A stretch of DNA of 64,000 bases. Source: an uncultured Candidatus Rokubacteria bacterium. GTDB lineage: Bacteria; Methylomirabilota; Methylomirabilia; Rokubacteriales; DASRDR01. The notes beneath the pieces are model-generated. The model had not been told where the DNA came from and did no database searches. It saw only the letters and a list, made by a program, of their open reading frames with translations. Location: positions 1,760,001-1,824,000 of the forward strand of contig CAWDVE010000010.1 of the NCBI GenBank assembly GCA_963805625.1, read 5' to 3'. Position 1 is the first letter of the stretch; the number at the start of each line of letters is the position of its first letter. Position numbers and translations under genes: made by a program. Below, piece by piece: positions 1,441 through 32,736 of the stretch.

Positions 1441-1915
1441 GTGTGAGGCGTAGCCCCCTTGGCCGTAGCCCCATGGCTTGTAGGGAGCCAGGGTGATCAT
1501 CAGCGACCGTGGCCGTGTCGGCCACCCCACCGGGATTATCGCAGAACTGTCACGAGAGCTCCAACCCGACGCCCAGAGCCCGCCGACGTCAGCAGGAACG
1601 CGGGGACTGACGGCCCAAGGCGCGGCAGATCGTAGGGGGGCGCCCGCCGAACAATACGTCCGACCCCGGGCATCACGCAGTGCGCTAGGCAGCACCGAGC
1701 CTGTGGACGAGCGAGAGACTCATCGACAGGCCGCGTCCGACGCCGACGAATCACTCGGATCATCCCGCGAATGACAGCGGTGACGATTACCTGCTGAGCT
1801 TGTGTCTCTAGGGCTGCCGAGGATGAGTGGCCGGTTGAGCTTCGCTGAATGCCAGTCGGGGAGTCTGGCAATCGCACCGGGGGCTACGGTGTGCGCCGTA
1901 ACCCCCGATGGCCGT

Positions 1916-1960
1916 TGGAGCGGCCGACCGGAATCGAACCGGCGATGTCCAGCTTGGGAA
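1916..1960 (-). repeat. tRNA-Gly 3' fragment (att core), copy with 2 mismatches
   Basis: 43/45 identical to 32662-32706; identity stops at the edge of the anticodon loop. Confidence 0.92.
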
Positions 1961-2526
1961 TTTCCTTGCGGTCACCTCACGTCATGTCACTTCCCCTCAG
2001 AATTCATCACTTTCGGCCACCTTCACGATCCCCGGATCTCACGTCTTGTCATTCCTTCTCACGCCATTCGGGCAGCATCTTGGGCAGCAGTCGCTGAGCG
2101 TCGCGTCAAGCAGGACACGTGCGTCGGAACCTCGGGGTGGCTCAATGTCGGATCGCCCGCGTCCAGAGCACTGTCGCGGATCCTGTGGTGTCCCACATTC
2201 TGACCGCATCCTCGTAAGGGCGCCCCGGCTCACCGCCACGAGTGATCCCCGCGGGCGAGCGTGACGGCTGGGCTGCTTTGATACCGTCCAAGACGTCCCC
2301 CTGCAATCCATCATACGAAGGCGGCCTCCTCCCCAGCGAGGAGGCTGCTCACTTTTGCACACCCCCTGACCAGGCGCGTTGCGAACCAGCCTCGGCGGGA
2401 GGCGCCCTTCACTGGCGACGCGCCCTGTTGTAGTCTTTCGGCTCGATAGCCCGACATCACGCCGGCAGTCTGGCCGTCGCGAGATGGAAGCGTCATGAAA
2501 GTGCGCTAACGGTGGTACGACGGGCA

Positions 2527-5500
2527 ATGGAGATACAGCCACCTCGAGGCCTGTGGTTCTCGCCCTTTCGGCTCGATCCGGATAATGCGCTGCTGTGGCG
2601 AGGCTCGGCAGAAATTCACCTGACACCCAAGGCCTTCGCCGTGCTGCACTGCCTCGTTGAGCGCCACGGCCAGCTTGTCACTAAGGACGTGTTGCTCGAG
2701 CGCGTCTGGCCCGGGACCGTGGTGGGCGACGCAGTGCTCAAGGTCTGCGTTCGGGAGATCCGGAAGGCTCTCGGCGATGAGGTCGGCGCACCCCGGTTCG
2801 TGGCCACGGTGCACCGTCGGGGGTACCGGTTCATCGCCGACGTCACCGACGTCGACCCGCGACCGCCGCGCGGTGAGGCGCCGGGGGGGTCGGCGGCGGC
2901 CGCCGCCCTCAGCAGCCGCGCCGGCTATCGCGGCCCGGCCCACTTCGTGGGCCGGGAGACGGCTTTGGGCAAGCTCCGGACAGGGCTCGATGCGGCGTGG
3001 CGCGGCGTGCGACAGATCGTCTTCGTGACCGGCGAGCCTGGCATCGGCAAGACGGGTGTGGTCGAGGCCTTTCTCGAGCGCGTCGCCTCCGACCCGCGCG
3101 TCTGGATCGCGCGAGGCCAGTGCGTCGAGACGTACGGGACTCAGGAACCATATCTGTCGCTGCTCGATGCCCTCGGCCGGCTGTGCCGCGAGACTGGGGG
3201 CGACTGGCTGGTCACCCTCTTGCGGCAGCATGCGCCCACCTGGCTGGTGCAGATGCCATGGCTCCTCGGTCCCGCCGACCGCGACGCGCTGCACCGGGAG
3301 TTGCTGGGCGCCACGCAAGAGCGCATGCTGCGCGAGATCGCCGAAGCGGTCGAGGCGCTGACTGCGGAAGCGCCTCTGGTCGTGGTCCTCGAAGACCTGC
3401 ACTGGAGTGACCCGGCGACCGTCGATCTGGTCTCACTCTTGGCGCGGCGCCCGCAGCCGGCGCGGTTGCTCCTGATCGGTACGTATCGTCCAGTCGATCT
3501 GATCGTCCGCCAGCACCCCCTCAAGGAAGTCAAGCTCGAGTTGCAGGCCGCCGGGCGATGCCAGGAAGTGTCGCTCGAGTTACTGGGTGTGGCCGCGGTG
3601 GCCGACTACCTGCGGGAACGTTTCGCCCACAACGCCTTCCCGTCAGGACTGGCGCAGGTCATCAGCCGGCGGACCGAGGGCAATCCGCTCTTCATGGTGA
3701 GCGTGATCGACGACCTCGTCGGGCGCGGACTGATCGCCATGCGCGACGACCGGTGGGAACTCCGCGCGGGGCTGGAGGAGGTCGAGGTCAGCGTGCCGGA
3801 GAGCCTGCGCCAGATGATCGAGCGGCGGATCGAGCAGCTCGGCGGCGAGGAGCGCCGCATCCTGGCGGCGGGCAGCGTGGCCGGCATGGAGTTCTCGGCG
3901 GCCTCGGTGGCGGCGGCCCTGAACCAAATGACGGCCGAGGTGGAGGAGCGGTGCGACGAGCTGGCGCGGCGGCAACTCTTCATCCGTTCGCTCGGAGCAC
4001 GCGAGTGGCCGGACCGGACGGTGGCGTCGAGCTACGGGTTCATGCATGCCCTGCATCAGAACGCGCTCTATCAGGGCATCACGCCGACGCGACGGCGGCA
4101 CTTGCACCAGGCGATCGGCGAGCGGGAGGAGATCGGCCACAGCGACCGGAGGGGGGATATCGCCGGCGCGCTCGCCGTGCACTTCCAGCAAGCGGGCGAT
4201 GACCGGCGAGCCGTGCGGTACCTGGCGGAGGCGGCGGACACGGCGAGTCGCCGACACGCCAACGCCGAGGCGGTCGGGTACGTCGCGCGCGCGCTCGAGA
4301 TCGCCGAGCGGTTACCGGACGGCGAGCGCGTGGCCTCGCACCTGGGGCTGCTCAAGCAGCTCGGCCTCCTCCGCCGCGCCATGGGCGACGTGCGCGGTTC
4401 GATTGAGGACTTCACGGCGCGCGCCCGCTACGCGCGGGAGCACGGCCGCGGCGATGAGGAGGTGCGGGCACTGTTGGAGCTGGGCGGCGCCCTCTCCTGG
4501 GTCGATCGCGACCGTAGCCTGGCCGCTGTCGAGCAGGCCCTCGCCCTCGTGCCTCAACTGCGTGACAAGGCATTGCAGGCGCACGTCAATGGTTCCCTCG
4601 CGTTCCAGCGCATCCTCTCGCGCGGATGGCGGGACGAGGACGCCAAGACGTGCCGTCTTTCGTTGGACATCGTGCGGCGCACCGGTGAGCGACGGCATCT
4701 CAGCCTACACGTTGGCCGCTATGCACTTCTGCAGAGCCACCGGTCGGAGTACCGGGCAGCGTGCCGCACGGCGGAGCAAGGCCTGCGGCTGGCGGTGGAG
4801 GTGCGCGACGCCTATCACTACATGACCGCTCAGTTCTATCGCGCGTGGGCGTTGCTGCATCTCGGGCAATGGGGGGAGCTGCGGCGCGTCCTCCGCGACG
4901 GACTCGAGATGGCGGAGCGCAACGGCCATCACCTGTGGGCGCGGGCATTCCGATTCCACACGGCATGGCTGCTCACGCACGCGGGTGACTTCGCGAGGGC
5001 TCGTGCGCTCTGCGAGCAGGAGCGGCAGCCCGGTGAGGAAGTCCAGCTGGGGGAGAACCTGGGCTCGATCGTCCTCGGGTTCGCCAATGTCGGGTCGAGC
5101 CGGTTCCCCGAAGCCCTGCGCGCCTTCAAGGAGGTCACCGGCCGGTTCGACAGCGGACCGGTCCTGATGGACTGGATCCTCAACATGCCGCTGCGTCTAG
5201 GACTGGGAGAGTACTGGCTCGTGCGCCGACAGTTCGGGCGGGCCCGCGAAGAGATGAAGGAGCTGTGTCGGCTCGCCACCGCCCCGGGTGAGCGCACGTA
5301 CCTCGCCCTCGGTCATCAGGGCCTGGCCGAGGCGGCTCTGGGCGAGGGCGACCGAGCCATGGCCGAACGCGAGGTGGCCGAGGCCCTCCGCGTGCTCGAC
5401 GGGTTCGAGGCGCCGGTGGCGGCGTGGCGAGTCTGCGCCACCGCCGCGCGTGTCGAGGAGGCACGTGGGAGCCTGTTGAGAGCGAAGGCCTACTGGGGGC

Positions 5501-5703
5501 GAGGTGCCGCGGTGCTCGAACGACTGGCAACCTGCCTAGAGGATGACGGCGATCTGTACCACTCCTTCCTGGCCCAACCCGCGGTTGAGGCCGTGCGCCG
5601 GAACGCGAAACGCTCGGCCGACGATGCGCCGGCAAAGAGCCTAGCCCCAGGCCGCGGCGGCCGGCGCCCCGGCTCGTCACGCCGCCGTCAGCGTCTGCCG
5701 TAG
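2527..5703 (+). CDS. OmpR/PhoB-type winged-helix + AAA/STAND ATPase + TPR-like transcriptional regulator
   Basis: N-terminal LTPKAFAVL...IRKALGD...TVHRRGYRF; Walker A GEPGIGKT; Walker B VVLEDLHWSD; TEGNPLF; helical C-terminus. Confidence 0.88.
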   Translation: MEIQPPRGLWFSPFRLDPDNALLWRGSAEIHLTPKAFAVLHCLVERHGQLVTKDVLLERVWPGTVVGDAVLKVCVREIRKALGDEVGAPRFVATVHRRGYRFIADVTDVDPRPPRGEAPGGSAAAAALSSRAGYRGPAHFVGRETALGKLRTGLDAAWRGVRQIVFVTGEPGIGKTGVVEAFLERVASDPRVWIARGQCVETYGTQEPYLSLLDALGRLCRETGGDWLVTLLRQHAPTWLVQMPWLLGPADRDALHRELLGATQERMLREIAEAVEALTAEAPLVVVLEDLHWSDPATVDLVSLLARRPQPARLLLIGTYRPVDLIVRQHPLKEVKLELQAAGRCQEVSLELLGVAAVADYLRERFAHNAFPSGLAQVISRRTEGNPLFMVSVIDDLVGRGLIAMRDDRWELRAGLEEVEVSVPESLRQMIERRIEQLGGEERRILAAGSVAGMEFSAASVAAALNQMTAEVEERCDELARRQLFIRSLGAREWPDRTVASSYGFMHALHQNALYQGITPTRRRHLHQAIGEREEIGHSDRRGDIAGALAVHFQQAGDDRRAVRYLAEAADTASRRHANAEAVGYVARALEIAERLPDGERVASHLGLLKQLGLLRRAMGDVRGSIEDFTARARYAREHGRGDEEVRALLELGGALSWVDRDRSLAAVEQALALVPQLRDKALQAHVNGSLAFQRILSRGWRDEDAKTCRLSLDIVRRTGERRHLSLHVGRYALLQSHRSEYRAACRTAEQGLRLAVEVRDAYHYMTAQFYRAWALLHLGQWGELRRVLRDGLEMAERNGHHLWARAFRFHTAWLLTHAGDFARARALCEQERQPGEEVQLGENLGSIVLGFANVGSSRFPEALRAFKEVTGRFDSGPVLMDWILNMPLRLGLGEYWLVRRQFGRAREEMKELCRLATAPGERTYLALGHQGLAEAALGEGDRAMAEREVAEALRVLDGFEAPVAAWRVCATAARVEEARGSLLRAKAYWGRGAAVLERLATCLEDDGDLYHSFLAQPAVEAVRRNAKRSADDAPAKSLAPGRGGRRPGSSRRRQRLP

Positions 5704-6125
5704 CCCTCTCGGGCTGGGGAGCGTCGCAAGGGGCGCGACGGTCAGGTGACCGGTGGCGGGAGGCGAGCACGCCCGGGCCGCAGATGCTCGCCGGGGGCGG
5801 TCATCCCGAGCCGCTACAGTCGCCGCCCGGAGTCTCCGGGCGTCTGTGTTTGCGCGCCCAGGATCCGCCTGGCCGCCGTGCAGTGCGGAAGCGTCGCAGA
5901 TCGGAGGTGGAGCGTCTCCGACGCAATACGGCATTCACTAATTCCACCCTTGCTGACCAGGCGATCGGCCCTGGCTCCGAAAGGTCTACAGCACCGCCAA
6001 CGAATTTGGTGTGAGCGCCGTGTCCGCTCGCCCGATGAGCCGCGGTAGACCCGCGGTCGAGATTGCCATCCGTCTCCACGCCAGCGCCATTCCAGCCCGA
6101 CCAGGATAGCCGTGACACCCAGCTT

Positions 6126-6163
6126 CCTTACCCGATTCTAACCGAAACCTTACGCGGTCCTCA
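6126..6163 (+). promoter_or_regulatory. Four direct repeats at 11-bp period, candidate winged-helix operator
   Basis: CCTTA (6126), TCTAA (6137), CCTTA (6148), CCTCA (6159), upstream of the 6225 and 6520 genes. Confidence 0.45.
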
Positions 6164-6224
6164 TGACGGGGCCGCACGGGTTCCCTACCCTCGACGTCGA
6201 GTGCAATGACCAGAGAGAGCCCGA

Positions 6225-6446
6225 GTGACGCCCGCTGACGAGACCCGACGCGCGCTACCCGTGGAACGGGCGTTCGTCGTGCACCTGCGACCGGAGGCGC
6301 TCCCCGAGGAGGGGCTACTGGTGGGCCGCGTCGAGCACGTCGTGTCCGGCCGGAGCGAGCATTTCGATTCGCTGCCCGAGTTGCTCGCCTTCCTAGGCCG
6401 GACGGTGAGGGTAGCAGAGGGGCTCTGCTTCAAGGAAGCGAGGTGA
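6225..6446 (+). CDS. Small hypothetical protein
   Basis: 73 aa; protein-like AFVVHL...GRVEHVVSG...FDSLPELLAFL. Confidence 0.65.
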   Translation: MTPADETRRALPVERAFVVHLRPEALPEEGLLVGRVEHVVSGRSEHFDSLPELLAFLGRTVRVAEGLCFKEAR

Positions 6447-6519
6447 GGGAACCAACGCGGGCCGACGTAATGACGCCACGTCCTCTTCACCACTCACACA
6501 GAGAGAGGAGCTTGCAACC

Positions 6520-7317
6520 ATGAAGAAGCAGATGGTCTTGTCCACCGTAGCCGCCGTTGGCGCGCTGTCGGTTCTGCTGTCACTCCCGGTTCGCCAGGCA
6601 CACGCACAAGCGGTATACCAGGCCGCCGGGCCGACCGCGGCCTCGATTCAGAGCACGGTGGACGAATTCCGTGATGCCCTGGGAGACAACCACGGCAACG
6701 TGGCGCAGCATTTCGACGGAGGTCGCCGCGAGATCAACTGGGACGGTAACCCTACGACGGACGTGACAACACCCCCGATCACGCCGTTCAACACGTTCCT
6801 GAACAGCCGCGGCGCTCAGTTCACCACGCCGGGGACCGGCCTTTCCCAGGCCCCTCCATCGGGCGGCCCTCAGGGCGGCCTTGCCGTGCTCTTCGACAAT
6901 CCCGCTTACGCCACCACCTTCAGCACGTTCAGCGCCCCGCGCCTGTTCACGCCGGTAGGCAGCCGGATCACCGAGGCCTTGTTCTTCGAGGCCGGCACCA
7001 ATGGAGCGAACCCGGCTGCGGTGACTGGCTTCGGCGCGGTCTTCACGGACGTTGACGGGCCGGAAGCGGGAAAGTCGGAGAAGCATAGTACCCGGATCGA
7101 GTACTTCGACGCCGATGGCCATCGGCTCTTCACCGGGCTCGTCCCGGCCTCGCCTGGCGATGGGACCTTCTCCTTCTTCGGCATCGTGTTCGACGACCCG
7201 CGCATCGCTCGGGTGCGGATCACGACCGGCGACTCGCGCCCGGGCCCGGATGACGATAAGAAGGACATCGTCATGATGGATGACTTCATCTACGGTGAGC
7301 CGCAACCTTTGCCATGA
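6520..7317 (+). CDS. Secreted beta-rich hypothetical protein
   Basis: GAGGAG RBS; signal peptide ending AHA; RREINWDG, FGAVFTDVD and MMDDFIYGEP motifs. Confidence 0.8.
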   Translation: MKKQMVLSTVAAVGALSVLLSLPVRQAHAQAVYQAAGPTAASIQSTVDEFRDALGDNHGNVAQHFDGGRREINWDGNPTTDVTTPPITPFNTFLNSRGAQFTTPGTGLSQAPPSGGPQGGLAVLFDNPAYATTFSTFSAPRLFTPVGSRITEALFFEAGTNGANPAAVTGFGAVFTDVDGPEAGKSEKHSTRIEYFDADGHRLFTGLVPASPGDGTFSFFGIVFDDPRIARVRITTGDSRPGPDDDKKDIVMMDDFIYGEPQPLP

Positions 7318-7420: not shown

Positions 7421-7872
7421 CCCCTGCTTTCGGCGTCACTCCGGGCTTCCCCGCAGAACGCAGCGAGCCTCGAATCGGAAGGGGGAAGCACTGCTTTCGT
7501 ACCGTCCAAAGCCCCCCCGCAACCATGAACGGCACACAGTCCTCCGGCTGACGACGGCGTTGCTGCTCATCGAGCACGGAGCGTTCGACTTCGCCATGTA
7601 CAAGGACTGGAGTGGCTACGCCGCGACAATCGGGAGCAGCCCATTCTTGCTCGCTCACCATCCGCTCCGTCCCTTCGCCGCTGGTTCGAATGCGCCCGAC
7701 AGCGACGTCCAACCTCGAGTCTGGACGTCGCAGGTCGAGGGAGCTGCCCAAACGAGCTCATCTGCATGGGATCTCATTGGAAGCATGGGCGAAATTCGGT
7801 GTGAACGCAGGCGCAAAAGCAGCAGCAACGCGAACGCGGAGCTGCAGGTGCGCTGCAACCCCGCGTCGTCGT

Positions 7873-7917
7873 TGGAGCGGGCGACCGGAATCGAACCGGC
7901 GACGTCCAGCTTGGGAA
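7873..7917 (-). repeat. tRNA-Gly 3' fragment (att core), perfect copy
   Basis: 45/45 identical to 32662-32706. Confidence 0.95.
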
Positions 7918-8085
7918 TTTTCTTGCGTGGTCTCACGAAATGTCACTTGCCATCAGAATTCATCACTTGCGCCCATCGGCCCGATCCCGCGATCTCACAC
8001 CTTGTCACTCCTTCTCACGCCAGTTGGGCAGCAGCCGCCGGACGCCGCGTCATGCTGCCTAGTCGGCCCTCCACCGCTCCGTCCC

Positions 8086-9427: not shown

Positions 9428-9531
9428 GTTCAGGATGGTTCGTCCACCTCCGGTGGAGGCAGGGTGAGCCAGCGACCCGCGTACAGTCCTCCATGATAGA
9501 CTGTGGGACTAAGTAAAACGAGTCGAGTGAG

Positions 9532-9762
9532 TTGACCACGACCAAGACCGTATTCACCGCCGTCCTCGAACGGGAAGGCGACGTCTATGTCGGGCTGTGC
9601 CCCGAACTCGACATCGCCAGCCAAGGGGCGACGATCGAAGAGGCCGCCGCGAACCTCCGGGAAGCAGTAGTCTTGTTCCTGGAGACGGCCGACTCCCGAG
9701 AGATCACCCACCGGTTGCGGTCTGGCGTGTTCGTGACGACGTTCGACGTCGTCGATGGGTAG
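9532..9762 (+). CDS. hicB: HicB-like antitoxin (short form)
   Basis: FTAVLEREGDVYVGLCPELDIASQGATIEEAAANLREAV. Confidence 0.85.
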   Translation: MTTTKTVFTAVLEREGDVYVGLCPELDIASQGATIEEAAANLREAVVLFLETADSREITHRLRSGVFVTTFDVVDG

Positions 9763-9981
9763 ACTGCGGGTCCTCTCCGGCCGCGAAGCCTGCCGCATCC
9801 TGGAGCAACACGGATTCAGCGAGGTTCGGCGCCGAAGAAGCCACATGTCATGCAGCGTCGAACCTCCGAGGGCACGACTACGGTTCCGGTCCCGAACCAC
9901 GCCGAACTCGCCATCGGGACTCTGGCGTCAATCATCCGCCAGAGCGGCGCGCCTCGCGCGGCATTCGAGTCGCCGGAGTAG
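9755..9981 (+). pseudogene. hicA: HicA toxin, 1-nt frameshift
   Basis: MGRLRVLSGREACRILEQHGFSEVRRRRSH, then VMQRR...TVPVPNHAELAIGTLASIIRQSG in another frame; CACATGTC here vs CACATTGTC in the second copy. Confidence 0.8.
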
Positions 9982-10145
9982 CTCCCAGCCGTCACGCCGC
10001 CCTTCCTGGGGAGCGACGGAGGACCCGCCGTCCTCGGGAGATGCCTCCCAAGCCGAGGCGCACGCGATGTGACCTTGAACCCACGATAGCGCCAGGGCAT
10101 CCGGAACCCCAAGGAAACCCGGAACGAATTCATGATTCGGTGTAC

Positions 10146-10976: not shown

Positions 10977-11017
10977 GGCGATCGGCCTCCCCCGGGGTCA
11001 GCTCTTTCCGTTTCCGT

Positions 11018-12193: not shown

Positions 12194-12213
12194 GGCTGTT
12201 CCCCCTTCCGGTT

Positions 12214-14711: not shown

Positions 14712-14749
14712 TATAACTCGGTTTCGCGCGACAATGCGGAACGGCGGGG

Positions 14750-15825: not shown

Positions 15826-15826
15826 G

Positions 15827-17245: not shown

Positions 17246-17265
17246 TTGTTGTTCGAGGAGTCGCA

Positions 17266-19731: not shown

Positions 19732-19776
19732 TGGAGCGGGCGACCGGAATCGAACCGGCGACGTCCAGCTTGGGAA
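19732..19776 (-). repeat. tRNA-Gly 3' fragment (att core), perfect copy
   Basis: 45/45 identical to 32662-32706. Confidence 0.95.
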
Positions 19777-19781
19777 TTTCC

Positions 19782-20054
19782 TTATGCCTGCCTCACAAAC
19801 TGCCACTTTCTGAGCCGCCGGCGGGCAAACCCTTCCAGTGCGGTGGGCGAGAACACCACGCCGATCGCCGTGGGTTCACCATGGCGATTCAGCTCCGCAT
19901 AGCGCGACACCGTCCCCTTCCCGAGATCCGTCTGCCCTCCCAGGTGTCGGGCTGCTGGCGCGTCAGAGCGCCGGTCGAGTAACGCACACCCGGTCAGGAT
20001 CATCGCCACCAATAGGACAACTGCAAGGGAACCAACCATTCTGTGCCCCTCCAC
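19782..20054 (-). pseudogene. Truncated lipoprotein (N-terminus resembles DUF5602-type proteins)
   Basis: Lipobox LTGC, then LGKGTV...PTAIGVVFSPTALEG, then runs into the att arm. Confidence 0.5.
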
Positions 20055-20937: not shown

Positions 20938-20946
20938 GGTGACACG

Positions 20947-23358: not shown

Positions 23359-23359
23359 C

Positions 23360-24043
23360 ATGGCGCTCTGGGGGATGGTGATCGATCTCGACCGTTGCAC
23401 CGGCTGCCAGGCGTGCGTCATGGCGTGCAAGGCAGAGAACAACGTGCCCGCCGTCGGGGCGAGAGAGGCCGCACTCGGCCGGACCATCAGCTGGATGCAG
23501 GTGCTGACCGAGGAGGACGAGACGCGCCCCGGAGAGGTGAAGCGCTTCCTGCCCAGGCCGTGCCTCCAGTGCGATGATCCCCCGTGCACCAAGGTCTGCC
23601 CCGTCTACGCCACCTACCGCAACCCCGAGGGGATCGTCGCCCAGATCTACGCGCGCTGCATCGGGTGCCGCTTCTGCATGGCGGCTTGCCCGTACAACGC
23701 CAAGTACTTCAACTGGCGGGTCTACCAGAAGGAGGGGCCGGGGCAGAACCCGGACGTGTCGGTTCGTCCCAAGGGTGTCGTGGAAAAGTGCACCTTCTGC
23801 CATCACCGCCTCCAGAAGGCCCGGGAGCGTGCACTCGCTGAGCGGCGGGACCTGGCCCCCGGGGAGTACGTTACCGCCTGCGCCGAGGCCTGCCCAGCGC
23901 GCGCGATCACCTTCGGAGACCTCTCCGATCCCGGCAGCGAGGTCTCGCGCCTCGCGCGGAGTCCCCGCGCCTTCAGGCTCCAGGAGGAGCTGGGGACGAA
24001 GCCCAAGGTGATCTACCTGACCGAGGGCGAGAACCATGGGTGA
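23360..24043 (+). CDS. Four-cluster Fe-S protein (NrfC/PsrB/QrcC-like)
   Basis: CTGCQACVMAC, CLQCDDPPCTKVC, CIGCRFCMAACP, CTFC...CAEACP. Confidence 0.92.
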   Translation: MALWGMVIDLDRCTGCQACVMACKAENNVPAVGAREAALGRTISWMQVLTEEDETRPGEVKRFLPRPCLQCDDPPCTKVCPVYATYRNPEGIVAQIYARCIGCRFCMAACPYNAKYFNWRVYQKEGPGQNPDVSVRPKGVVEKCTFCHHRLQKARERALAERRDLAPGEYVTACAEACPARAITFGDLSDPGSEVSRLARSPRAFRLQEELGTKPKVIYLTEGENHG

Positions 24044-25400
24044 GCCCCGGATCGGCCGCGGGGACCCGTACGAGGCCCCCCTGCTCGCCCCCATCGAGCG
24101 AACGGGACCCGGGTTCTACTGGGCCGTGGGCGCTCTCTCGCTGCTCATCGCCTGGGGAGCCGTGGCCTACTGGCGGCAGTTCACCGAGGGGCTCGGGGTG
24201 ACGGGGCTCCACCAGCCGGTGTCCTGGGGCTTCTACGTCACCAACTTCGTCTTCTTCATCGGGATCAGCCATGCCGGGACCCTGATCTCGGCGATCCTCC
24301 GGCTCTCGAAGGCGGAGTGGCGGCGCCCCATCACCCGCATGGCCGAGGTGATCACGGTGATGGTCCTCTTCATCGGGGCGGGACAGATCCTGGTGGACCT
24401 GGGCCGGCCCGACCGGATGCTGAACGTCATCCGCTACGGCCGCTACCAGTCCCCGCTTCTCTGGGACGCCACCAGCATCAGCGCGTACCTTACTGCCAGC
24501 ATCGTGTACCTCTACCTCCCGCTGATTCCCGACATCGCCATCCTCCGGGACCGACTCGACAAGCGGAAGCTCCTCTACGCGGTCCTGGCCCTGGGCTGGA
24601 CGGGCAGCGCGCGCCAGCAGAAGGTCCTGAACCGGGCGATCGCGATCATGGCCGTCCTGGTGATCCCAATCGCGGTCTCAGTCCACTCGGTGGTGTCCTT
24701 CGTCTTCTCCATGACGCTCCAGCCCATGTGGCACTCGACGATCTTCGGTCCCTACTTCGTCGTGGGCGCCATCTTCTCGGGCATCGCCGCCCTCATCGTG
24801 GCGATGATCGTCTTCCGGAAGGCTTACGGGCTCGAGGCCTACCTGAAGCCGGTCCACTTCCGCTATCTGGGGCAGCTCCTCCTGATCATGTCGCTTCTCT
24901 GGTTCTATTTCACCTTCGCCGAGTACCTGACCGGCTACTACGGAGCGGAGCCGGAAGAGATGCACGTCTTCTGGGCCAAGGTGACCGGACCCTTCCGGCT
25001 GTTCTTCTGGGGAATGGCCCTCACGAACTTCGTCGTTCCGGTGCTCTGCCTGGTGAGGCTGGGCCGCCACACGATCGGCAAGGTCCTCGCGGCTTCTCTG
25101 TCGGTCTCGGTGGGGATGTGGCTGGAGCGCTTCATCATCGTCGTCCCGACGCTCTCGAATCCCAGGCTTCCGTTCCCGGAGGGCCACTACTGGCCGACCT
25201 GGGTGGAGTGGGGGGAGATGACAGGCAGCTTCGCCCTGTTCGCTCTCTTCTACCTCCTCTTCACCAAGCTCTTCCCGATCATCTCCATCTGGGAGATCCG
25301 GGAGGGTCGGGAAGGGATCAAGGAGGTCCGCGAACGGCTCGACAGCTACCTTCCGGCCGCGGCCGAGGCGGAGCTGGCCGTGGCGGAGCCCAGGCGATGA
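24036..25400 (+). CDS. NrfD/PsrC-family quinone-interacting membrane subunit (ActC/QrcD-like)
   Basis: WGFYVTNFVFFIGISHAGTLISAIL, DLGRP, SPLLWD, GMWLERF. Confidence 0.9.
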   Translation: MGEPRIGRGDPYEAPLLAPIERTGPGFYWAVGALSLLIAWGAVAYWRQFTEGLGVTGLHQPVSWGFYVTNFVFFIGISHAGTLISAILRLSKAEWRRPITRMAEVITVMVLFIGAGQILVDLGRPDRMLNVIRYGRYQSPLLWDATSISAYLTASIVYLYLPLIPDIAILRDRLDKRKLLYAVLALGWTGSARQQKVLNRAIAIMAVLVIPIAVSVHSVVSFVFSMTLQPMWHSTIFGPYFVVGAIFSGIAALIVAMIVFRKAYGLEAYLKPVHFRYLGQLLLIMSLLWFYFTFAEYLTGYYGAEPEEMHVFWAKVTGPFRLFFWGMALTNFVVPVLCLVRLGRHTIGKVLAASLSVSVGMWLERFIIVVPTLSNPRLPFPEGHYWPTWVEWGEMTGSFALFALFYLLFTKLFPIISIWEIREGREGIKEVRERLDSYLPAAAEAELAVAEPRR

Positions 25401-25720
25401 CGGGGAGCAGCCCGGGGCCGGTCGCCGAGCGAACCGTGAGGGCCCTCCAGTGGACGATGGCCGGGGCCGCCGTCCTCTTCATCGTCGGGATCATTACCTG
25501 GATCAGTCACCTGATCCGCACCGCCTGGCGGCTCCAGGACGTCCCGTCGGCCTCCATCGGGATCTCGCTGGTGGCGATACCGGTCTTCCTCACCCTGCTC
25601 GGAGTGGTCCTGTACGTCTTCTGGGGGCTCCTGGCGGACCCGGGGCGAGGGAGCGAGCCTCCCGCGCATCCGACGGCGCCTCCCGGGGGCGACCGTCAGA
25701 CCACCGGAGGCAGATCGTGA
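25397..25720 (+). CDS. Small two-TM membrane protein
   Basis: Overlaps both neighbours (ATGA/GTGA); two hydrophobic helices. Confidence 0.65.
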   Translation: MTGSSPGPVAERTVRALQWTMAGAAVLFIVGIITWISHLIRTAWRLQDVPSASIGISLVAIPVFLTLLGVVLYVFWGLLADPGRGSEPPAHPTAPPGGDRQTTGGRS

Positions 25721-26970
25721 AGCGGCGGGTTCTGGTCGTCGGCCTCGTGGCCCTCCTCGCGGGAGTGGGACCGGCACTCGCCGTCCGCCCGGCCTCCGGA
25801 GGTCACGAGGGCCTCTCCGCCATCCTCCCGGGCAATCCGCTGGAGGGAAGCCGGCTCTTCACCGGGAAGGGGTGCCTCAGCTGCCACTCCGTCCATGGCG
25901 TCGGCGGGACCACCGGGCCCGATCTCGGCCGCGGGATCCTGAACCGCCCCCTCCTCGATATCGCCGGCGTGATGTGGAACCACTCTCCGGGGATGGAGCA
26001 CGTCTTCCAGGAGAAGCGCCTCGCCAGGCCCCGGCTCGAGGTCGCAGAGATGGCGAGCCTGCTGGCGTTCCTCTACTACCTCGGCTCCCTTGATCCCCCC
26101 GGCAATGCGGAGGTCGGCGCCCGCCTCTTCCGGCAGAAGGGCTGCCAGACCTGCCACTCCGTGGGCGGACAGGGCGGCCACATCGGCCCGGAGCTGGACC
26201 AGTACAGCCGCTACGCCTCGCCTCTCCACCTCACGGCCGGCCTGTGGCGACGGGGAAAGGCCATGGCCGCGAAGATGGAAGAGCGGCGGGTCCCGCGCCC
26301 CAGCTTCGAGGGTACCGACATCCCGGATCTCCTCGCGTACATCCGGAGTGCGGGAGGCAGCTCGGAGCGGATCTACGTCCCGCCGGGGAACCCGAAGCAC
26401 GGGGAGGAGCTGTTCACCGCGAAGCGATGCGTGGAGTGCCACTCGGTGAGGGGCCACGGCGGGAAGGTGGGGCCTGACCTCGGGCTCACGGTCAAGGGAA
26501 GTCTCATGCGGATCGCCGGGACGATGTGGAACCACGGGCCCAGGATGTGGGCAAAGATGGCCGAGCGGGGCATCGAGGTCCCCTCGCTCGGCACCGGGGA
26601 GATGGGGGACCTGATCAGCTACCTCTACTTCTTCCAGTTCATCGATCCGGCCGGCGACCCCCGCCGGGGGTGGGTGGTGTACAAGGAGAAGCGGTGCGGC
26701 GCATGCCATGCCGCCACCGGGGCCGGCAAGCCGGTCGCCCCGCCGTTCGCCGATCTGGTCGAGAAGCTCGCCACTCCCCTCGAGGTGGTCACTGCGATGT
26801 GGAATCACGCGGGAAAGATGGAGGAGAAGATGTCGGAGGAGAACGTGGCCTGGCCGGTCCTCAAGGGCGGAGAGATGGCGGACCTGCTCGACTACCTCCT
26901 CTCCGGCCGGGGGGTCGCGGCGCCGTCCGACGGCTCCAAGGTGCCCGCGCCCAAGGGGCAGCCACGGTAG
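25717..26970 (+). CDS. Periplasmic cytochrome c with four tandem mono-heme domains
   Basis: Signal peptide; CLSCH, CQTCH, CVECH, CGACH; three of the four followed by MWNH. Confidence 0.85.
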   Translation: MKRRVLVVGLVALLAGVGPALAVRPASGGHEGLSAILPGNPLEGSRLFTGKGCLSCHSVHGVGGTTGPDLGRGILNRPLLDIAGVMWNHSPGMEHVFQEKRLARPRLEVAEMASLLAFLYYLGSLDPPGNAEVGARLFRQKGCQTCHSVGGQGGHIGPELDQYSRYASPLHLTAGLWRRGKAMAAKMEERRVPRPSFEGTDIPDLLAYIRSAGGSSERIYVPPGNPKHGEELFTAKRCVECHSVRGHGGKVGPDLGLTVKGSLMRIAGTMWNHGPRMWAKMAERGIEVPSLGTGEMGDLISYLYFFQFIDPAGDPRRGWVVYKEKRCGACHAATGAGKPVAPPFADLVEKLATPLEVVTAMWNHAGKMEEKMSEENVAWPVLKGGEMADLLDYLLSGRGVAAPSDGSKVPAPKGQPR

Positions 26971-26999
26971 GGAGACTCCGCAACACAAGGAGGTGCGCG

Positions 27000-27968
27000 A
27001 TGACGCGCTCAAGAGGCACGTTCGGGACGCTGTTGCTCGCCGTCTTGGTCGGGCTCGGGCCGGCCGCGGCCGACGAAATGGAGATCGCCGCCAAGAAGGT
27101 CACGGAGGCACCCGCGATCGACGGGAAGGTGGACAAGATCTGGGATGGCGTCAAGGCCACGAAAGTGACCGCGTCCGAGGGCCCGCAGGGCGACGTCGAG
27201 ATCAGCCTGAAGGTCCTCTACACGGACAAAGACGTTTACTTCCTGTTCCAGTGGCCCGACAAGACCCAGAGCCTCAACCGGCTCTACGAGTTCACCGGGA
27301 CCGAGTGGAAGAAGCTCAAGGGGGCCGAGGACCGGTTCAACCTCATGTGGGACATCGCCAACACAATGAAGGAGTTCCCCGCCAAGGGATGCACGGCCGC
27401 GTGCCACAAGCAGGACAAGAAGATCTGGCTCAGTACCAACGGACCCACCGAGCGGCTGGACGTGTGGCACTGGAAGGCGCAGCGCTCGAACCCGGTGGGC
27501 TATGCCGATGACCAGTGGCTGGGCCACGAGCTCCGCAAGGAGGGGGACGAGGAGATCGCCCGGGGTAACGACGCGAAGACCGCCGGGGGCTACTCGGACA
27601 ACTGGGACAAGGATGCCAAGCGCCCCAAGTACATGTTCAAAGAAGGAGTCAAGCCGGGGCCGATCCTCCTGAAGAAGGACGCGGTGGAGATCAAGGACGC
27701 GAAGTTCAAGGCGGGCGACCGACTGCCGCGTGAGGTGCTGGAGAAGCCAGTCGGGAGCCGCGGCGACATCGAGGCCAAGGGGGTATGGGACAAGGGTCGC
27801 TGGACCCTCGAACTCCGGCGGGCTCGCGACACCGGGGACAAGGAAAACGACATCCAGTTCACTGATCCGAACCGGCCATACTACTTCGGGATCTCGGTTC
27901 ACGACGACGCCGGCGACGAGGACCATTCTCACACCGGCCGCACGGCGATGAAGCTGCTCCTGAAGTGA
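27000..27968 (+). CDS. Ethylbenzene-dehydrogenase gamma-like (DOMON) heme protein
   Basis: Signal peptide; APAIDG, YFLFQWPD, EDR, CTAACH, DVWHWKAQR, WTLELRR. Confidence 0.8.
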   Translation: MTRSRGTFGTLLLAVLVGLGPAAADEMEIAAKKVTEAPAIDGKVDKIWDGVKATKVTASEGPQGDVEISLKVLYTDKDVYFLFQWPDKTQSLNRLYEFTGTEWKKLKGAEDRFNLMWDIANTMKEFPAKGCTAACHKQDKKIWLSTNGPTERLDVWHWKAQRSNPVGYADDQWLGHELRKEGDEEIARGNDAKTAGGYSDNWDKDAKRPKYMFKEGVKPGPILLKKDAVEIKDAKFKAGDRLPREVLEKPVGSRGDIEAKGVWDKGRWTLELRRARDTGDKENDIQFTDPNRPYYFGISVHDDAGDEDHSHTGRTAMKLLLK

Positions 27969-28175: not shown

Positions 28176-29492
28176 TGTCCTTCGCCAAAACCTGTCCGGT
28201 GGATAAGCGGTTGATCTTTTGGCTCTGATCCGGAGACAATCGCCGCCCCATGATCACTACGCTGCTGCACCTGCTTCGACTCTTCCCGTTCCTCTGCGTC
28301 GGCCACCGCCAACTTGCTCTCGAGAACCTCGCCTTGCGCCAGCAGCTCGCCGTGTACAAGAGAACGGCGAAGCGGCCGCAACTGCGCCGCCGCGAGCGGC
28401 TCTTCTGGGTCTGCTTGTCCAGGGTGTGGACGAAATGGAGAGCGGCCCTCGTCATCGTGGCACCCGACACCGTCCTGCGCTGGCAGCGGCACCGCTTCCG
28501 TCTGCACTGGACCACGCTTTCCGGCCGGCCCGCCGGGGGCCGCCCGCCCGTCAGCCCCGAGATCAGAGCCCTTGTCAGACAAATGGCCGCGGCGAATCCG
28601 CTCTGGGGCGCCCCGAGAATCCATGGTGAGCTCCTGAAGCTCGGCATCGACATCGGCGAGCGCACTGTCTCCCGGCTGATCCCCAAGCGTCGCACCCCGC
28701 CGTCTCAGACCTGGCGCACGTTCCTCACCAACCATGTCCGCGACCTGGTCTCGATCGACTTCTTCACCGTGCCCACTGCTGGGTGGCGCGTCCTCTTCGT
28801 CCTCGTCGTGCTCGCTCACCATCGGCGGCGCGTCGTCCACTTCAACGTCACCGAGCATCCCACCGCCTGGACCGCCCAGCAGATCGTGGAGGCGTTCCCG
28901 GACGACACCGCGCCAGCCTATCTCCTCCGCGATCACGACACGATCTACGGTCACGCCTTCCGGCGACGGGTGAAGGGCCTGCAGATCCAGGAGGTCCTCA
29001 CGGCCGCCCGCTGCCCGTGGCAGAATCCCTTCGTGGAACGGCTCATCGGCTCGATACGGCGCGAGTGTCTGGACCATGTCCTCGTTCTGAGCGAGCCGCA
29101 CCTGCACCGCATCCTGACCCGCTACTTCGCGTACTGTCACCGCGCCCGAACGCATCTCTCACTCGAGAAGGATGCGCCAGACGTCAGGCCCATCGAGCGG
29201 CCGGCGATGGGCACGATCGTGCCGATCTCCGAGGTCGGGGGCCTGCATCATCGATACGTACGGCGGGCGGCATAACCCAGCATCGACCGGCTCGCGCCCC
29301 GCTACTCTTCGTCGTCCCGGCCGTCATCCGTCCTGCACGGACGATCACATCTTTCTGTGCTAGGCCCGATCGCCGGAGGATGCCGACTGCCTTGCGGCGG
29401 GCCAGCCGCTCACCTGTCGTCAGGCGTGCTGAGCCCGCCGGTCGCCCACGGAGCGTCGCCAGGCGAGTCGGCCGCGGTTTTGGCGAAGGACA
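28176..29492 (+). mobile_element. Insertion sequence, about 1.3 kb, IS3/IS481-like DDE type
   Basis: Perfect 17-bp terminal IRs TGTCCTTCGCCAAAACC / GGTTTTGGCGAAGGACA (TG...CA); 3-bp GCC flanking duplication. Confidence 0.88.
28250..29275 (+). CDS. Integrase-core (rve) DDE transposase
   Basis: WGAPRIHGEL, SIDFF, LRDHD, PWQNPFVERLIGSIRRECLD. Confidence 0.9.
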   Translation: MITTLLHLLRLFPFLCVGHRQLALENLALRQQLAVYKRTAKRPQLRRRERLFWVCLSRVWTKWRAALVIVAPDTVLRWQRHRFRLHWTTLSGRPAGGRPPVSPEIRALVRQMAAANPLWGAPRIHGELLKLGIDIGERTVSRLIPKRRTPPSQTWRTFLTNHVRDLVSIDFFTVPTAGWRVLFVLVVLAHHRRRVVHFNVTEHPTAWTAQQIVEAFPDDTAPAYLLRDHDTIYGHAFRRRVKGLQIQEVLTAARCPWQNPFVERLIGSIRRECLDHVLVLSEPHLHRILTRYFAYCHRARTHLSLEKDAPDVRPIERPAMGTIVPISEVGGLHHRYVRRAA

Positions 29493-29628: not shown

Positions 29629-30429
29629 CTATCGGGTGGCAGCCTTGATGGTCGGGAACGGGCCGTCGAAGAATGCCACGTTGTGGAACGCTTCGTTGAC
29701 CAGGGCCTCGGCGACAAGACGCGCCTGAGCACCGTCCCGACCGAAGACGACGATGCGGGTATTGTGATCCTCCATTGGGAGGCGACCGTCGTCCTTGGCC
29801 CGCTTCACCTCGCCAACGTCCTTTCCGGGCCTCAAGCCAGCGGCAGGCAACGTGCGGGCGCCGCTGATGGTCCCCGCTGAGAACTCCTCGCCACTCCTCG
29901 CGTCGAGGAACACGGCCGTCCGGTCGCTGGCGTGGACGTACGTGACTCCCTCGAGCCGGATCTGCGTGAGGCCGCCGAGCGCTCGCCAGACGGGAATGCC
30001 GAGTTGGTACCGGCGCACGCTGGTGAAGCCCGCGCCGAGAAGCTCCTCGGACAGGCGCTTGCTCTTACCGCAGTAAGGGCCGTTGCAGTACAGCACGAGC
30101 GACTTCGTCCGGTCGCCGCCGACCAGCCGCTCGATCTCTCGGACGTCCGACACGTAGACGGACATCGGGACGTCCGGCTTCGCGGACACGTTGAGCGCGC
30201 CGGGAATGTGGCTCACCGCATACTCCATGAACGGCCGCGCGTCGAGCACGAGACTGCTCTGGGCGCCGAGGACCTGCCTGAGCTCCTCGGTAGAGACCTC
30301 GGCCGTCTTCTGGTTGGGCTCCAGCAACGTTCCCTGGAATACGCTGAGGCCCGACTGAGCCGGAGCGATCGAGGTCACGAGGAGAGACGTGACCAGCACG
30401 GGGACGCTGGCTGTCCAAATCCTGTCCAT
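29629..30429 (-). CDS. Secreted tandem rhodanese-domain protein
   Basis: Signal peptide; LDARP...SHIPGALN; LYCNGPYCGKS; a second LDAR domain. Confidence 0.85.
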   Translation of the reverse strand: MDRIWTASVPVLVTSLLVTSIAPAQSGLSVFQGTLLEPNQKTAEVSTEELRQVLGAQSSLVLDARPFMEYAVSHIPGALNVSAKPDVPMSVYVSDVREIERLVGGDRTKSLVLYCNGPYCGKSKRLSEELLGAGFTSVRRYQLGIPVWRALGGLTQIRLEGVTYVHASDRTAVFLDARSGEEFSAGTISGARTLPAAGLRPGKDVGEVKRAKDDGRLPMEDHNTRIVVFGRDGAQARLVAEALVNEAFHNVAFFDGPFPTIKAATR

Positions 30430-30565
30430 CCGTACCTCCCTTTCATGCGGCGTTGTCCCACGTCCGGGCGGCCTTGGAACGGGCATGCCCGCGACGAGTC
30501 AAGGCCACGTGGATGGCGGAAAAAACTGAAATACATAACACGCCGTATTGATATAATTTCTGGTT

Positions 30566-31744
30566 ATGGACCTGGAAGCGCGGCTCCGTGCGTTCGCGGC
30601 CTTCGCGCGATGTCGTTCGTTCTCGGCGGCCGCGCAGGAGCTCCGCATCAGTCAACCCGCTGTCTCCAAGCACGTCGCCGACGTCGAGCGTTACGCCGGT
30701 GTGCAGCTCGTCGAGCGCCGTCCCCGTGGTGGCGATCTCACCCCCGCCGGCGAGTTCGTTGCCAATCACGTGCTCCGCGCCCAAGCCCTCTTGGCGCAGA
30801 CCGCCCGCGGCATCGCCCAGTTCCGTGAGCCCGCCACCGGATCCTTGACGATCGTCGCGTCGGGTGTCCCGGGCACCTACCTATTGCCGGAGGTCGTCGC
30901 GAGGTTTCAGCGCGCCCATCCCGGCGTGCGAGTGAGCATTGAGCTAGCGACATCCGCGAAAGCGGTGGAATCGCTGCGCTCGCATCGCGCCGAGCTCGGA
31001 GTGGTCGGCGGCTTTGCCGCCGCGCCCGAGATCGAATCGGAGCCGCTCGTGGAGGACAAGATCGTCGTCGTGGGGCCCCCGCAGCTCGCTCGCCGGACGC
31101 TGTCGCGGAAGCATGCGGAATCGATGACGTGGATCTCGAGAGAGGAGGGATCGGCCTCTCGAGCGTCGATCGAGGCAGCCTGGGCCGATTCCGGCATCAC
31201 CCCGAGTCGACGTCTCGAGCTCCCATCCTGGGAGGCGGTGAAGCTGGCCGTGTCCCGTGGTGATGGCGTGGCCGGGTGCAGCCGATTCGCGGTCGAAGGT
31301 GAGCTGCGCACCGGCTCCCTCGCGCTCGTTCGGCTTCGGGGCTGGAATGTTCGGCGGACGATCTCCATCATCCGGCTCCGGGATGCTACGTCTACGCCGT
31401 CGGCGCGCGAATTCCTGACGATGCTGCACGCGCAGTGGGGTCGCAAGCCGTCAGGACGAGCACACCGGCCTCCGGATCGCACCCCTCCCGGAGATTCAGG
31501 CTGGGCAGTGACGGCCCGCATGGTCCCGCCCGCCAGCTCTGACCGCATCTCTTACTGGGCGGACCACGCCGTCCACGAGCCTATCGGGCTCGCGATGCAC
31601 GGTTCACAGCGTGTCGCCTACGAGCGGACCGTCGCAGCGACGCGCGTCGCGTTGGGCGAGGAGCGCTTCGCGGCGACTTGGGCACAGGGGAAGGCGATGA
31701 CCACGGAACAAGCTGTCGAGTACGCCCTCTCGGCCGCCGATTGA
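30566..31744 (+). CDS. LysR-family regulator with an atypical C-terminal extension
   Basis: SFSAAAQELRISQPAVSKHV HTH; divergent from the rhodanese gene; about 95 extra aa. Confidence 0.85.
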   Translation: MDLEARLRAFAAFARCRSFSAAAQELRISQPAVSKHVADVERYAGVQLVERRPRGGDLTPAGEFVANHVLRAQALLAQTARGIAQFREPATGSLTIVASGVPGTYLLPEVVARFQRAHPGVRVSIELATSAKAVESLRSHRAELGVVGGFAAAPEIESEPLVEDKIVVVGPPQLARRTLSRKHAESMTWISREEGSASRASIEAAWADSGITPSRRLELPSWEAVKLAVSRGDGVAGCSRFAVEGELRTGSLALVRLRGWNVRRTISIIRLRDATSTPSAREFLTMLHAQWGRKPSGRAHRPPDRTPPGDSGWAVTARMVPPASSDRISYWADHAVHEPIGLAMHGSQRVAYERTVAATRVALGEERFAATWAQGKAMTTEQAVEYALSAAD

Positions 31745-31856
31745 TTGCGCCACGTCAATTCAGGAACCGGCCTCCTCTGGCTCTCCGCGCAAGGCCACCG
31801 ATCCCGTAGAGTCCTCCGTGATAGACTGCGGGAGCACGTAAGATGAGCCAGGTGAG

Positions 31857-32087
31857 TTGATCATGACCAAGAGCGTATTCACCGCCATCCTCGAGCGGGA
31901 AGGCGACGTCTATGTCGCGCTGTGCCCCGAACTAGATATCGCCAGCCAAGGGGCGACGATCGAAGAGGCCACCGCGAACCTCCGGGAAGCAGTAGCCTTG
32001 TTCCTGGAGTCGGCCGACTCCCGAGAGATCACCCACCGGTTGCGGTCTGGCGTATTCGTGACGACGTTTGACGTCGTCGATGGGTAG
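31857..32087 (+). CDS. hicB: HicB-like antitoxin, second copy
   Basis: Near-identical to 9532-9762. Confidence 0.85.
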   Translation: MIMTKSVFTAILEREGDVYVALCPELDIASQGATIEEATANLREAVALFLESADSREITHRLRSGVFVTTFDVVDG

Positions 32088-32326
32088 ACTGCGGGTCCTC
32101 TCGGTAGACTGCGGGTCCTCTCCGGCCGCGAAGCCTGCCGCATCCGGAGCAACACGGATTCACCGAGGTTCGGTGCCGAGGAAGCCACATTGTCATGCAG
32201 CGCCGAACCTCCGAGGGCACGACTACGGTTCCGGTCCCGAACCACGCCGAACTCGCCATCGGAACTCTGGCGTCAATCATCCGCCAGAGCGGCGCGCCTC
32301 GCGCGGCGTTCGAGTCGCCGGAGTAG
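32080..32326 (+). pseudogene. hicA: HicA toxin, inactivated by a 20-bp tandem duplication and a 1-nt deletion
   Basis: GGTAGACTGCGGGTCCTCTC at 32083-32102 and 32103-32122; CATCCGGAG here vs CATCCTGGAG in the first copy. Confidence 0.8.
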
Positions 32327-32490
32327 CTCTCAGCTGTCACGCCTCCCTTCCTGGGGTAGCGACGGAGGATCCGGTGTCCTCACGAGATGCCTCCAAAGCC
32401 GAGGGCACCCGATGTGACCCCCGAGGCCACCGGCCCCGCAGGCGAGACGTACGAGTCGCGGGCCTTGGGGCCGCACTCCATTTCCGTCGT

Positions 32491-32518
32491 TGACGTCCAG
32501 CCTCGAGGCTGGACGTCA
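32491..32518. repeat. Perfect 28-bp palindrome in the element arm
   Basis: TGACGTCCAGC-CTCGAG-GCTGGACGTCA; degenerate homolog at 7702-7731. Confidence 0.85.
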
Positions 32519-32622
32519 CCAGGTCAAGGAAACTGCCCAACGAGTTCCGTCTGCACTGGATCCCTTGGGAGGCATGGACGAAACTCGGTGTGAACGCGCC
32601 CACAAGGGCAGCATCGACGCGA

Positions 32623-32655
32623 ACGCGGGGCTGCAGGAGCCCTGCAACCCCGCGT
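32623..32655 (-). terminator. Hairpin immediately downstream of the tRNA
   Basis: ACGCGGGGCTGCAGG-AGC-CCTGCAACCCCGCGT; analogous hairpins precede all three att repeats. Confidence 0.6.
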
Positions 32656-32661
32656 CGTCGT

Positions 32662-32736
32662 TGGAGCGGGCGACCGGAATCGAACCGGCGACGTCCAGCT
32701 TGGGAAGCTGGCATTCTGCCGCTGAATTACGCCCGC
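32662..32736 (-). tRNA. tRNA-Gly(CCC)
   Basis: GCGGGCGTAATTCAGCGGCAGAATGCCAGCTTCCCAAGCTGGACGTCGCCGGTTCGATTCCGGTCGCCCGCTCCA: 75 nt, cloverleaf, CCC anticodon, encoded CCA. Confidence 0.97.

Follow-up and report, generated by a model that had tools for sequence, protein, structure and literature searches.

How does a row of genomic islands come to stand behind a single tRNA gene when none of them carries an integrase of its own? The question is raised by a stretch of 64,000 nucleotides (the window, G000:C10:1760001-1824000) from the genome of an uncultured Candidatus Rokubacteria bacterium (G000; 7.27 Mb, 69% GC, 99.9% complete, contamination 6.26%), in which the 3' 45 nt of tRNA-Gly(CCC), the core, recur as repeats flanked by conserved sequences that we call arms. 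As judged from sequence comparison, the array would be best explained, with a probability of roughly 0.6, by accretion and remobilisation of the kind described for cis-mobilizable elements (CIMEs): integrase-less islands, still bounded by attachment (att) sites, would have accumulated behind tRNA-Gly(CCC) and been remobilised by incoming intact elements. We favour this reading because the arms have been kept, a recombinase is absent, a clade of integrases lies beside the same kind of arms in relatives, and a module has recently been shared between species.

Organization of the array at tRNA-Gly(CCC)

The segments of the array, E1 to E4 counted outward from the tRNA gene, measure 12930 bp (E1), 11859 bp (E2), 5957 bp (E3) and 50.7 kb (E4, which extends out of the window). 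Their boundaries are as follows.

32662-32736, minus strand: tRNA-Gly(CCC), the integration target, whose 3' 45 nt (32662-32706) are the repeated core (from the sequence)
32490-32661, unstranded: left arm B of E1, with a hairpin (32627-32651), an inverted arm-type motif (32533-32539) and a palindrome (32492-32517)
19777-19812, plus strand: truncated right arm of E1, without arm-type sites
19732-19776, minus strand: exact copy of the tRNA 3' core (BLAST and sequence)
19448-19731, unstranded: left arm A of E2, with a GGTCACCA pair (19557-19575), two inverted copies and a hairpin (19696-19721)
7918-8052, plus strand: right arm of E2, with one arm-type site left (8025-8033) and a GCGTCA end motif
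7873-7917, minus strand: exact copy of the tRNA 3' core (BLAST and sequence)
7704-7872, unstranded: left arm B of E3, with an outer palindrome (7704-7729) and an inverted arm-type motif (7744-7750)
1961-2108, plus strand: right arm of E3, with six TCAC motifs, paired arm-type repeats (2069-2089) and a GCGTCA end motif
1916-1960, minus strand: copy of the tRNA 3' core with two mismatches (1924, 1946)
1666-1915, unstranded: left arm A of E4, with a single arm-type site (1687-1694) and a hairpin (1880-1905)

All core copies are in direct orientation, and their identity to the gene breaks off at tRNA position 31, where the anticodon loop begins (anticodon at 33). The locus thus has the marks of the anticodon-loop class of tRNA islands: a 3' tDNA fragment, direct orientation and identity from the loop. 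The chance expectation for the 45-mer in this genome is about 1e-15, and the tRNA was the sole match in an Rfam scan of window positions 1-34000. Sequence comparison located the copies at 1916, 7873 and 19732, ending at the edge of the loop, where a preliminary description of this DNA had placed them. That description confined mismatches to the most distal copy; the copy at 1916 does have two, but BLAST against the genome added two cores outside the window, and one of these, at C10:1711242, lacks one nucleotide and is located 50,674 bp to the left of 1916. Likewise, the proposed alternation of A and B left arms holds within the window (87% identity between the A copies, 82% between the B copies), but the core at C10:1711242 again has an A arm on its left; an insertion sequence stands 5 bp into its right arm. 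A relic arm pair is found at C10:1696650. The stretch C10:1697-1707 kb contains cargo with 87-92% identity to an element of the array in the related genome G174. In all, the array comprises at least five segments and extends for more than 95 kb. A hairpin first taken for the flank of an empty site turned out to belong to a further left arm that bears a repeat pair.

The other additional core, C17:21143-21187, is flanked by arm B and a full right arm. This lone junction (C17:21010-21421) stands amid insertion sequences in a region ending at a tRNA-Phe integrase, and a truncated serine recombinase gene is found 1.8 kb from it. Separately, a 4.2-kb block of E4 (C10:1733479-1737665) is 99.5% identical to C12:179603-183776, near a tmRNA and a tRNA-Leu island.

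The arms are longer than first described, the A arms starting near 1666 and 19448 and the right arms reaching 2108 and 8052. The right arm, of about 150 bp, contains repeated TCAC motifs, a direct-repeat pair about 107 nt from the core and the GCGTCA end motif; in 16 aligned right arms these motifs are conserved and the spacers variable. Among soil contigs, depth drops past 2108-2116, and eight contigs of one run go from 2108 into differing DNA. Left arms carry repeats of the GGGCAGCA or GGTCACCA type and, beside the tRNA end, a strong hairpin (z -4.8 to -6.4 in three copies, -2.8 in the fourth); in arm B of E1 the hairpin adjoins the tRNA 3' end and a 26-bp palindrome marks the outer edge. 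The arm-type and Xis site labels are putative assignments from position and from lambda-type att sites. A homologous arm had been reported after every core, and two right arms, R1 and R2, are indeed 81% identical, but the arm at 19777 matches R1 at only 22 of 36 bases. Both attL and attR are retained, as in CIMEs, near-complete in E3 and damaged in E1, E2 and E4; of the array's four right arms, two are truncated and another is without one repeat. We also considered whether the window arms hold the 3' ends of integrase genes, but this gained no support, the tBLASTn and BLASTn matches being weak or limited to hairpin and core.

Half of the 26-bp arm B palindrome (32492-32517; 7704-7729) repeats, with a 6-nt spacer, the ten core bases beside the anticodon loop, and this outer palindrome is conserved in several relatives. 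In arm A, a palindrome (1850-1870) is spaced like the anticodon stem-loop. Both palindromes are possible second crossover sites.

Absence of a recombinase

As in CIMEs, the array is without an integrase or other recombination gene, and it does not have the tyrosine integrase of its own by which Islander recognizes an island. PF00589 has 24 matches in the genome but none in the array, nor any between C10:697301 and 2009012; PF00239 has nine in the genome and none in the array; PF12167 has no match in G000. A hidden Markov model (HMM) of the likely cognate integrase clade described below, built from 17 sequences, including two from genomes flagged as unpublished (G008, G149) on which no conclusion depends by itself, and run unfiltered in six frames, found no match in C10:1680000-1793000 (113 kb), and the best match of an intact clade member in G000 is 33% identical and lies at another tRNA. 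The earlier statement that there is no tyrosine or serine recombinase, the only 'integrase' being an rve transposase (28250-29275), therefore stands. Decayed integrase remnants in each segment, which would have pointed to ordinary degraded islands, were found in the array segments by neither HMM nor tBLASTn. Elsewhere in the genome, three consecutive tyrosine recombinase genes lie at C10:694903-697301; we take this trio to resemble a recombinase-in-trio (RIT) element.

A candidate integrase in relatives

A search for an integrase beside the same arms, also suggested earlier, came up empty to the left of the window (from C10:1680000 on) but led to a candidate clade beside arms of the same kind in relatives. 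In G171:C97, a xis-like gene accompanies a frameshifted integrase gene that ends 124 nt before the core end (the frameshifts could be assembly errors). Its C-terminal piece has matches in 26 of 183 genomes. Of 29 loci of the order, 11 have the core no more than 220 nt from the integrase stop, and three more have it within 900 nt. The Pfam domains are Arm-DNA-bind_2, Phage_int_SAM_3 and Phage_integrase; the likely cognate enzyme is an ordinary lambda-type integrase with xis, belonging to an Arm-DNA-bind_2 clade that is abundant among known proteins, with 109 clusters at E<=1e-80. Paired repeats come after the integrase stop and differ in sequence by element (GGTTACC, GGTCAC, TGGGCAGT). In G114, a whole 14-kb element with integrase and terminase-like genes carries GGTCACC repeats on each arm; those of the right arm are about 107 nt away from the core, a distance also found in the window. 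TGGGCAG pairs follow the integrase stop in G024 and G031, and in G024 they occur on the integrase-bearing left arm and on a right arm, on two separate contigs, which makes this genome the closest, if indirect, link between the integrase and the arms of the window. An integrase left of a 21-bp core in G171:C5 has different repeats and was treated as a neighbour.

Beside the core, the integrase is intact in two genomes and broken or contig-cut in others, forming a decay series from intact genes (G086, G114) through the frameshifted gene of G171:C97 to C-terminal stubs (G171:C22, G163, G031) and then absence. The window's own family has 34 core copies in 17 of 21 genomes; pieces of the clade are found near three of these copies (1.5 kb searched on each side for most loci), and none has the likely cognate integrase in one open frame. 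Parent elements carry a xis-like helix-turn-helix gene, an integrase and, once, terminase-like genes, and no relaxase was seen among the eight open reading frames (ORFs) scanned besides the integrases.

The same arms with other cargo

Whether the arms occur with other cargo had been proposed as a test, and they do: in G174, in other Candidatus Rokubacteria and in soil contigs, the window arms flank different DNA. The right arm is matched at length in three of 20 family genomes besides G000, and over 23-28 nt only in two others (183 genomes searched). Arm B together with a hicB-hicA toxin-antitoxin module (hicAB) is found at or near the tRNA in G174 (twice) and in G166; beyond the module, the cargo is different in G174, and G166 has the same LysR-rhodanese block as the window. 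Among the three genomes arm B and hicB are each 97-99% identical, whereas a neighbouring poly(A) polymerase-family gene is only 79-82% identical (57-64% at third positions) and other flanking genes are 75-88% identical, and it is this disparity that points to recent exchange of the arm module between species. Junctions of left arm, core and right arm also occur in other assemblies (G174:C8, L093, L113, L119, L125, L129).

Some further loci are recorded here. G174 has two tRNA-Gly(CCC) loci in one bin, on C6 and C8, with flanks 79-83% alike and 6.9 kb of cargo 98.9% alike, reflecting either recent transfer or a mixed contig; we gave C6 little weight on account of these flanks. In L082 (G255:C400:2215-2452) and L139, two cores about 211 bp apart enclose one repeat pair, resembling an empty, microCIME-like mini-element. 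In G255:C337:202-5545, a junction core and the tRNA are inverted relative to each other, 5.3 kb apart.

A second arm family

A search for the junction pattern returned no viral, 23 genome and 105 metagenome loci. Of these 128 loci, 23 have the window arm type and 67 a related type that is richer in AT and occurs in Binatia and 'deltaproteobacterial' records; the other 38 satisfy neither rule. Of 46 distinct arms of the AT-richer type, one enters a complete 390-aa integrase that belongs to another clade (P0001), and a second enters the C-terminus of that integrase as far as the contig extends; the setting is confirmed by P0015, which reads through both arm and core. The remaining 44 right arms contain no integrase sequence, though the gene overlaps the arm in the intact form (44 of the 46 arms have at least 250 nt on the integrase side, many loci being short). 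The repeat pair is placed at +121 in 36 of the 46; in the 37 integrase-less arms that have it, identity averages 0.91 across the pair and 0.26 past it. P0001 is absent from all five genomes with second-type arms, and two whole Binatia-type elements (20.5 and 39.5 kb) are in genomes without this integrase. This family provides the best evidence for arms under selection without an adjacent integrase, but it is a sister family of that in the window. We considered P0001 as the cognate enzyme of the window and rejected it, its best match being about 27% identical in G000 and 36% among 251 genomes of the phylum. In a profile search of representatives, only P0001-family proteins end in the motif derived from the window arm.

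The search of viral contigs for a helper gave no junction match, no relative of P0001 and no usable locus for the Rokubacteria integrase; there were five arm-pair matches, none with a tRNA core or right arm in the preceding 170 nt. Binatia-type repeat pairs are also present on arms in the Rokubacteria genomes G162:C64, G166:C29 and G178:C187 (L261, L264, L273), a hint of exchange across phyla.

Mechanism and alternative explanations

According to the reading that we favour, ordinary lambda-type integrative elements would insert repeatedly at tRNA-Gly(CCC), presumably crossing over in the 7-nt anticodon loop, and would later lose their integrase. With each new insertion at the tRNA, the older elements would be shifted outward, and the integrase gene next to the left arm would disappear by deletion or give way to cargo and insertion sequences. 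An element of matching arm-type specificity that arrives later could then supply Int and Xis, and excision between any usable left and right arm would release hybrid circles that reshuffle arms and cargo, with homologous recombination between related elements adding patchwork. The segments would thus probably be remobilised by such incoming intact elements. Because one whole intact element, that of G114, has terminase-like genes, we guess that travel from cell to cell may be by phage-satellite-like helper packaging. Of the earlier proposal of elements mobilised in trans, the att-bounded and integrase-less nature of the segments is borne out, but the genome has no helper of the likely cognate clade and relatives show integrase decay.

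Several points weigh against this reading. No excised circle or empty site of the window segments was found in a comparison with public runs that used contigs only, and those contigs break at the core. Conjugation and mobilisation genes are absent among the 42 ORFs of the window, yet CIMEs are defined as derived from conjugative elements. A near-complete right repeat pair is present in E3 only, E2 having one repeat and E1 none, and the right arm of E4 being cut by an insertion sequence. No contig joins an intact integrase to arms of the TTGGGCAGC type (G024 is contig-cut and G031 has a stub). The module of arm B and hicAB is cut at three different inner-side points, and because these points differ, a parent with an interior integrase may have spread recently and then decayed host by host. 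Finally, identity between the G000 and G166 elements is patchy (0.73-1.00 in 150-bp steps), for which homologous recombination alone could be the source.

Much of this would also be expected if the segments were inert, having lost their own integrase and become immobile, with sharing due to the recent spread of autonomous parents and to homologous recombination. The integrase decay series beside the arms, the damaged arms and two broken hicA genes of the window, the differing inner break points of the common module, the patchy identity and the want of a helper in the genome all agree with it; nevertheless, we consider it unlikely, given five consecutive segments without any integrase remnant, pieces of the cognate integrase near only three of 34 family cores, and a second family in which 44 of 46 right arms have no integrase and identity falls from 0.91 to 0.26 past the repeat pair. 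A little less likely again is that these are dedicated non-autonomous cassettes, in which selected minimal arms pick up cargo and rare helper elements routinely mobilise them in trans, building an integron-like array. The absence of a resident integrase such as integrons have, the partial damage to the window arms and the excess of CIMEs over their autonomous parents already published for some loci speak against it. Its attraction lies in conserved arm motifs with fixed spacing (+121 in the Binatia-type arms), whole Binatia-type elements in genomes without P0001, the same arm module without integrase in three genomes, and homology that ends sharply at the repeat pair; however, the integrase of the window's family sits at the left arm, and a sharp end of the right arm is therefore expected in autonomous elements too, as in G114. 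An assembly artefact, in which contigs of different strains were joined at the 45-bp repeat, is very improbable: contamination of 6.26%, the lone junction copy on C17 and the fact that no public contig bridges a junction at near-identity would suit it, but the same left arm-core-right arm junctions recur in the six other assemblies or loci listed above, the copies have different flanks and at two sites the core itself varies, and an error of joining may reorder segments but not create them.

A broader proposal is tentative and, taken whole, doubtful. Soil Rokubacteria and Binatia-like bacteria might maintain a standing pool of integrase-free cassettes at tRNA-Gly(CCC), with selected minimal att arms and 4-50 kb of cargo, which rare satellite-like helpers would redistribute among species. 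One site would serve at least three arm-repeat codes and two unrelated integrase clades, and the whole would be an integron-like store, with a borrowed integrase, that is invisible to island-finding tools.

Cargo and toxin-antitoxin genes

Cargo gene families come from a scan of the 42 window ORFs, the DNA left of the window having been gene-called only. The features are as follows.

31805-32404, plus strand: hicB-like gene (31863-32087) and frameshifted hicA (from 32080), E1
29629-31744, unstranded: rhodanese-domain gene and LysR regulator, E1; the block that adjoins arm B in G166
28176-29492, plus strand: insertion sequence with rve_3 transposase and 16-bp terminal inverted repeats
20371-27968, plus strand: E1 cargo, with multihaem cytochrome, molybdopterin oxidoreductase, 4Fe-4S protein, NrfD, cytochrome c and EB_dh-domain genes
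18244-18905, minus strand: RHH antitoxin and PIN toxin (vapBC-type), E2, apparently whole
10146-17985, unstranded: E2 cargo, with a branched-chain-type ABC transporter, carbon-nitrogen hydrolase, amidase and isochorismatase-family gene
9480-10060, plus strand: second hicB-hicA module, E2, with hicA frameshifted at another place
2512-7317, plus strand: E3 cargo, with a Trans_reg_C/AAA regulator and two genes without a Pfam match

The cargoes had been called unrelated, but two segments have in common a 630-bp hicB-hicA module at 89% identity, and the E1 module accompanies arm B in relatives. Frameshifts disrupt the hicA gene of the two window modules and of three relatives, and the gene is whole in G160; the frameshifts form four independent break sets, with one break common to E1 of G000 and G166. 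The suggestion that toxin-antitoxin modules stabilize the segments consequently fails for both HicAB modules, leaving the one whole-looking vapBC-type pair of E2. No toxin-antitoxin pair was present among the ORFs scanned in E3; the start of the E3 regulator sits behind a right arm with a different left neighbour in L103. The insertion sequence at C10:1711289 that cuts the outermost right arm belongs to the same family as that at 28176-29492.

The LysR gene (30566-31744) is fused in frame to the 3' end of another gene, a fragment that precedes hicB in G174 and G166 too. The genes at 20371-27968 have the appearance of a complete respiratory operon (cytochrome c, molybdopterin oxidoreductase, NrfD) carried as island cargo.

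Comparison with known systems

Additive arrays of this general sort have already been published for streptococci and marine bacteria, which limits the surprise; in a search that left subscription papers and supplements outside, we found no account of such elements in Rokubacteria or Binatia. The array points to how an abundant uncultured soil lineage exchanges transport and respiratory modules, and with the arms mapped and a candidate integrase in hand, it becomes testable whether integrase-less islands are fossils or a reusable pool of cargo.

Islander and TIGER find islands by a 3' tDNA fragment downstream of the gene and include an anticodon-loop crossover class, but need an integrase gene per island, so that the present array would go unlisted (PMC4383910, PMC12424338). 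Arrays of its kind, here over more than 95 kb, therefore remain uncounted in such catalogues. Tycheposons and other Prochlorococcus islands carry a tyrosine integrase and excisionase, stand in tandem at tRNAs, sometimes with terminase, and push older elements outward, leaving fragmented integrases and partial tRNAs (bioRxiv 10.1101/2020.12.28.424599). They are defined by their integrase, whereas the window segments are without one; the tycheposon module of integrase, excisionase and hallmark replication or packaging genes is absent from these segments and partly present in the intact relative G114. The additive tRNA islands of Alteromonas (PMC4898812) and the fGI-2 island of Candidatus Methylopumilus (PMC10872708) consist of cassettes bounded by partial tRNAs, variable in number and order and near-identical across species. 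They stack like the array studied here; the conserved att arms and assigned integrase mapped here are not described in the passages compared.

Integrons also hold an ordered array whose newest member likely lies beside one fixed site, and consist of intI and single-gene cassettes bounded by attC. The array of the window has instead long double-stranded att arms with arm-type repeats and multi-gene blocks of 6-51 kb bounded by tRNA cores. No tyrosine recombinase was found near it, and no attC-bounded single-gene cassettes were seen, no search with an attC model having been made. With no resident integrase gene and blocks of this size, the earlier likening to an integron is not upheld.

The closest parallel is with CIMEs, which in streptococci have lost integration and transfer genes, kept attL and attR, and accreted in tandem at the 3' end of a gene, and which are said to arise by integrase decay of this kind (PMC5704250, PMC7563491). 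They measure 1.2-13 kb, with empty forms of 130-220 bp, and at one tRNA number 215 against 88 integrative and conjugative elements (PMC7563491). The empty forms resemble the 211-bp unit in G255. Like CIMEs, whose published sizes they fit, the window segments are without recombination genes, keep their att ends, stack in tandem and carry transporter, regulator and redox cargo. Unlike the arrays with which they were compared, every member here is free of integrase, including the one adjacent to the tRNA, and the parents have xis and integrase genes and once terminase-like genes, with no conjugation genes seen. In these respects the array fits the definition of CIMEs, to which descent from conjugative elements may be the exception.

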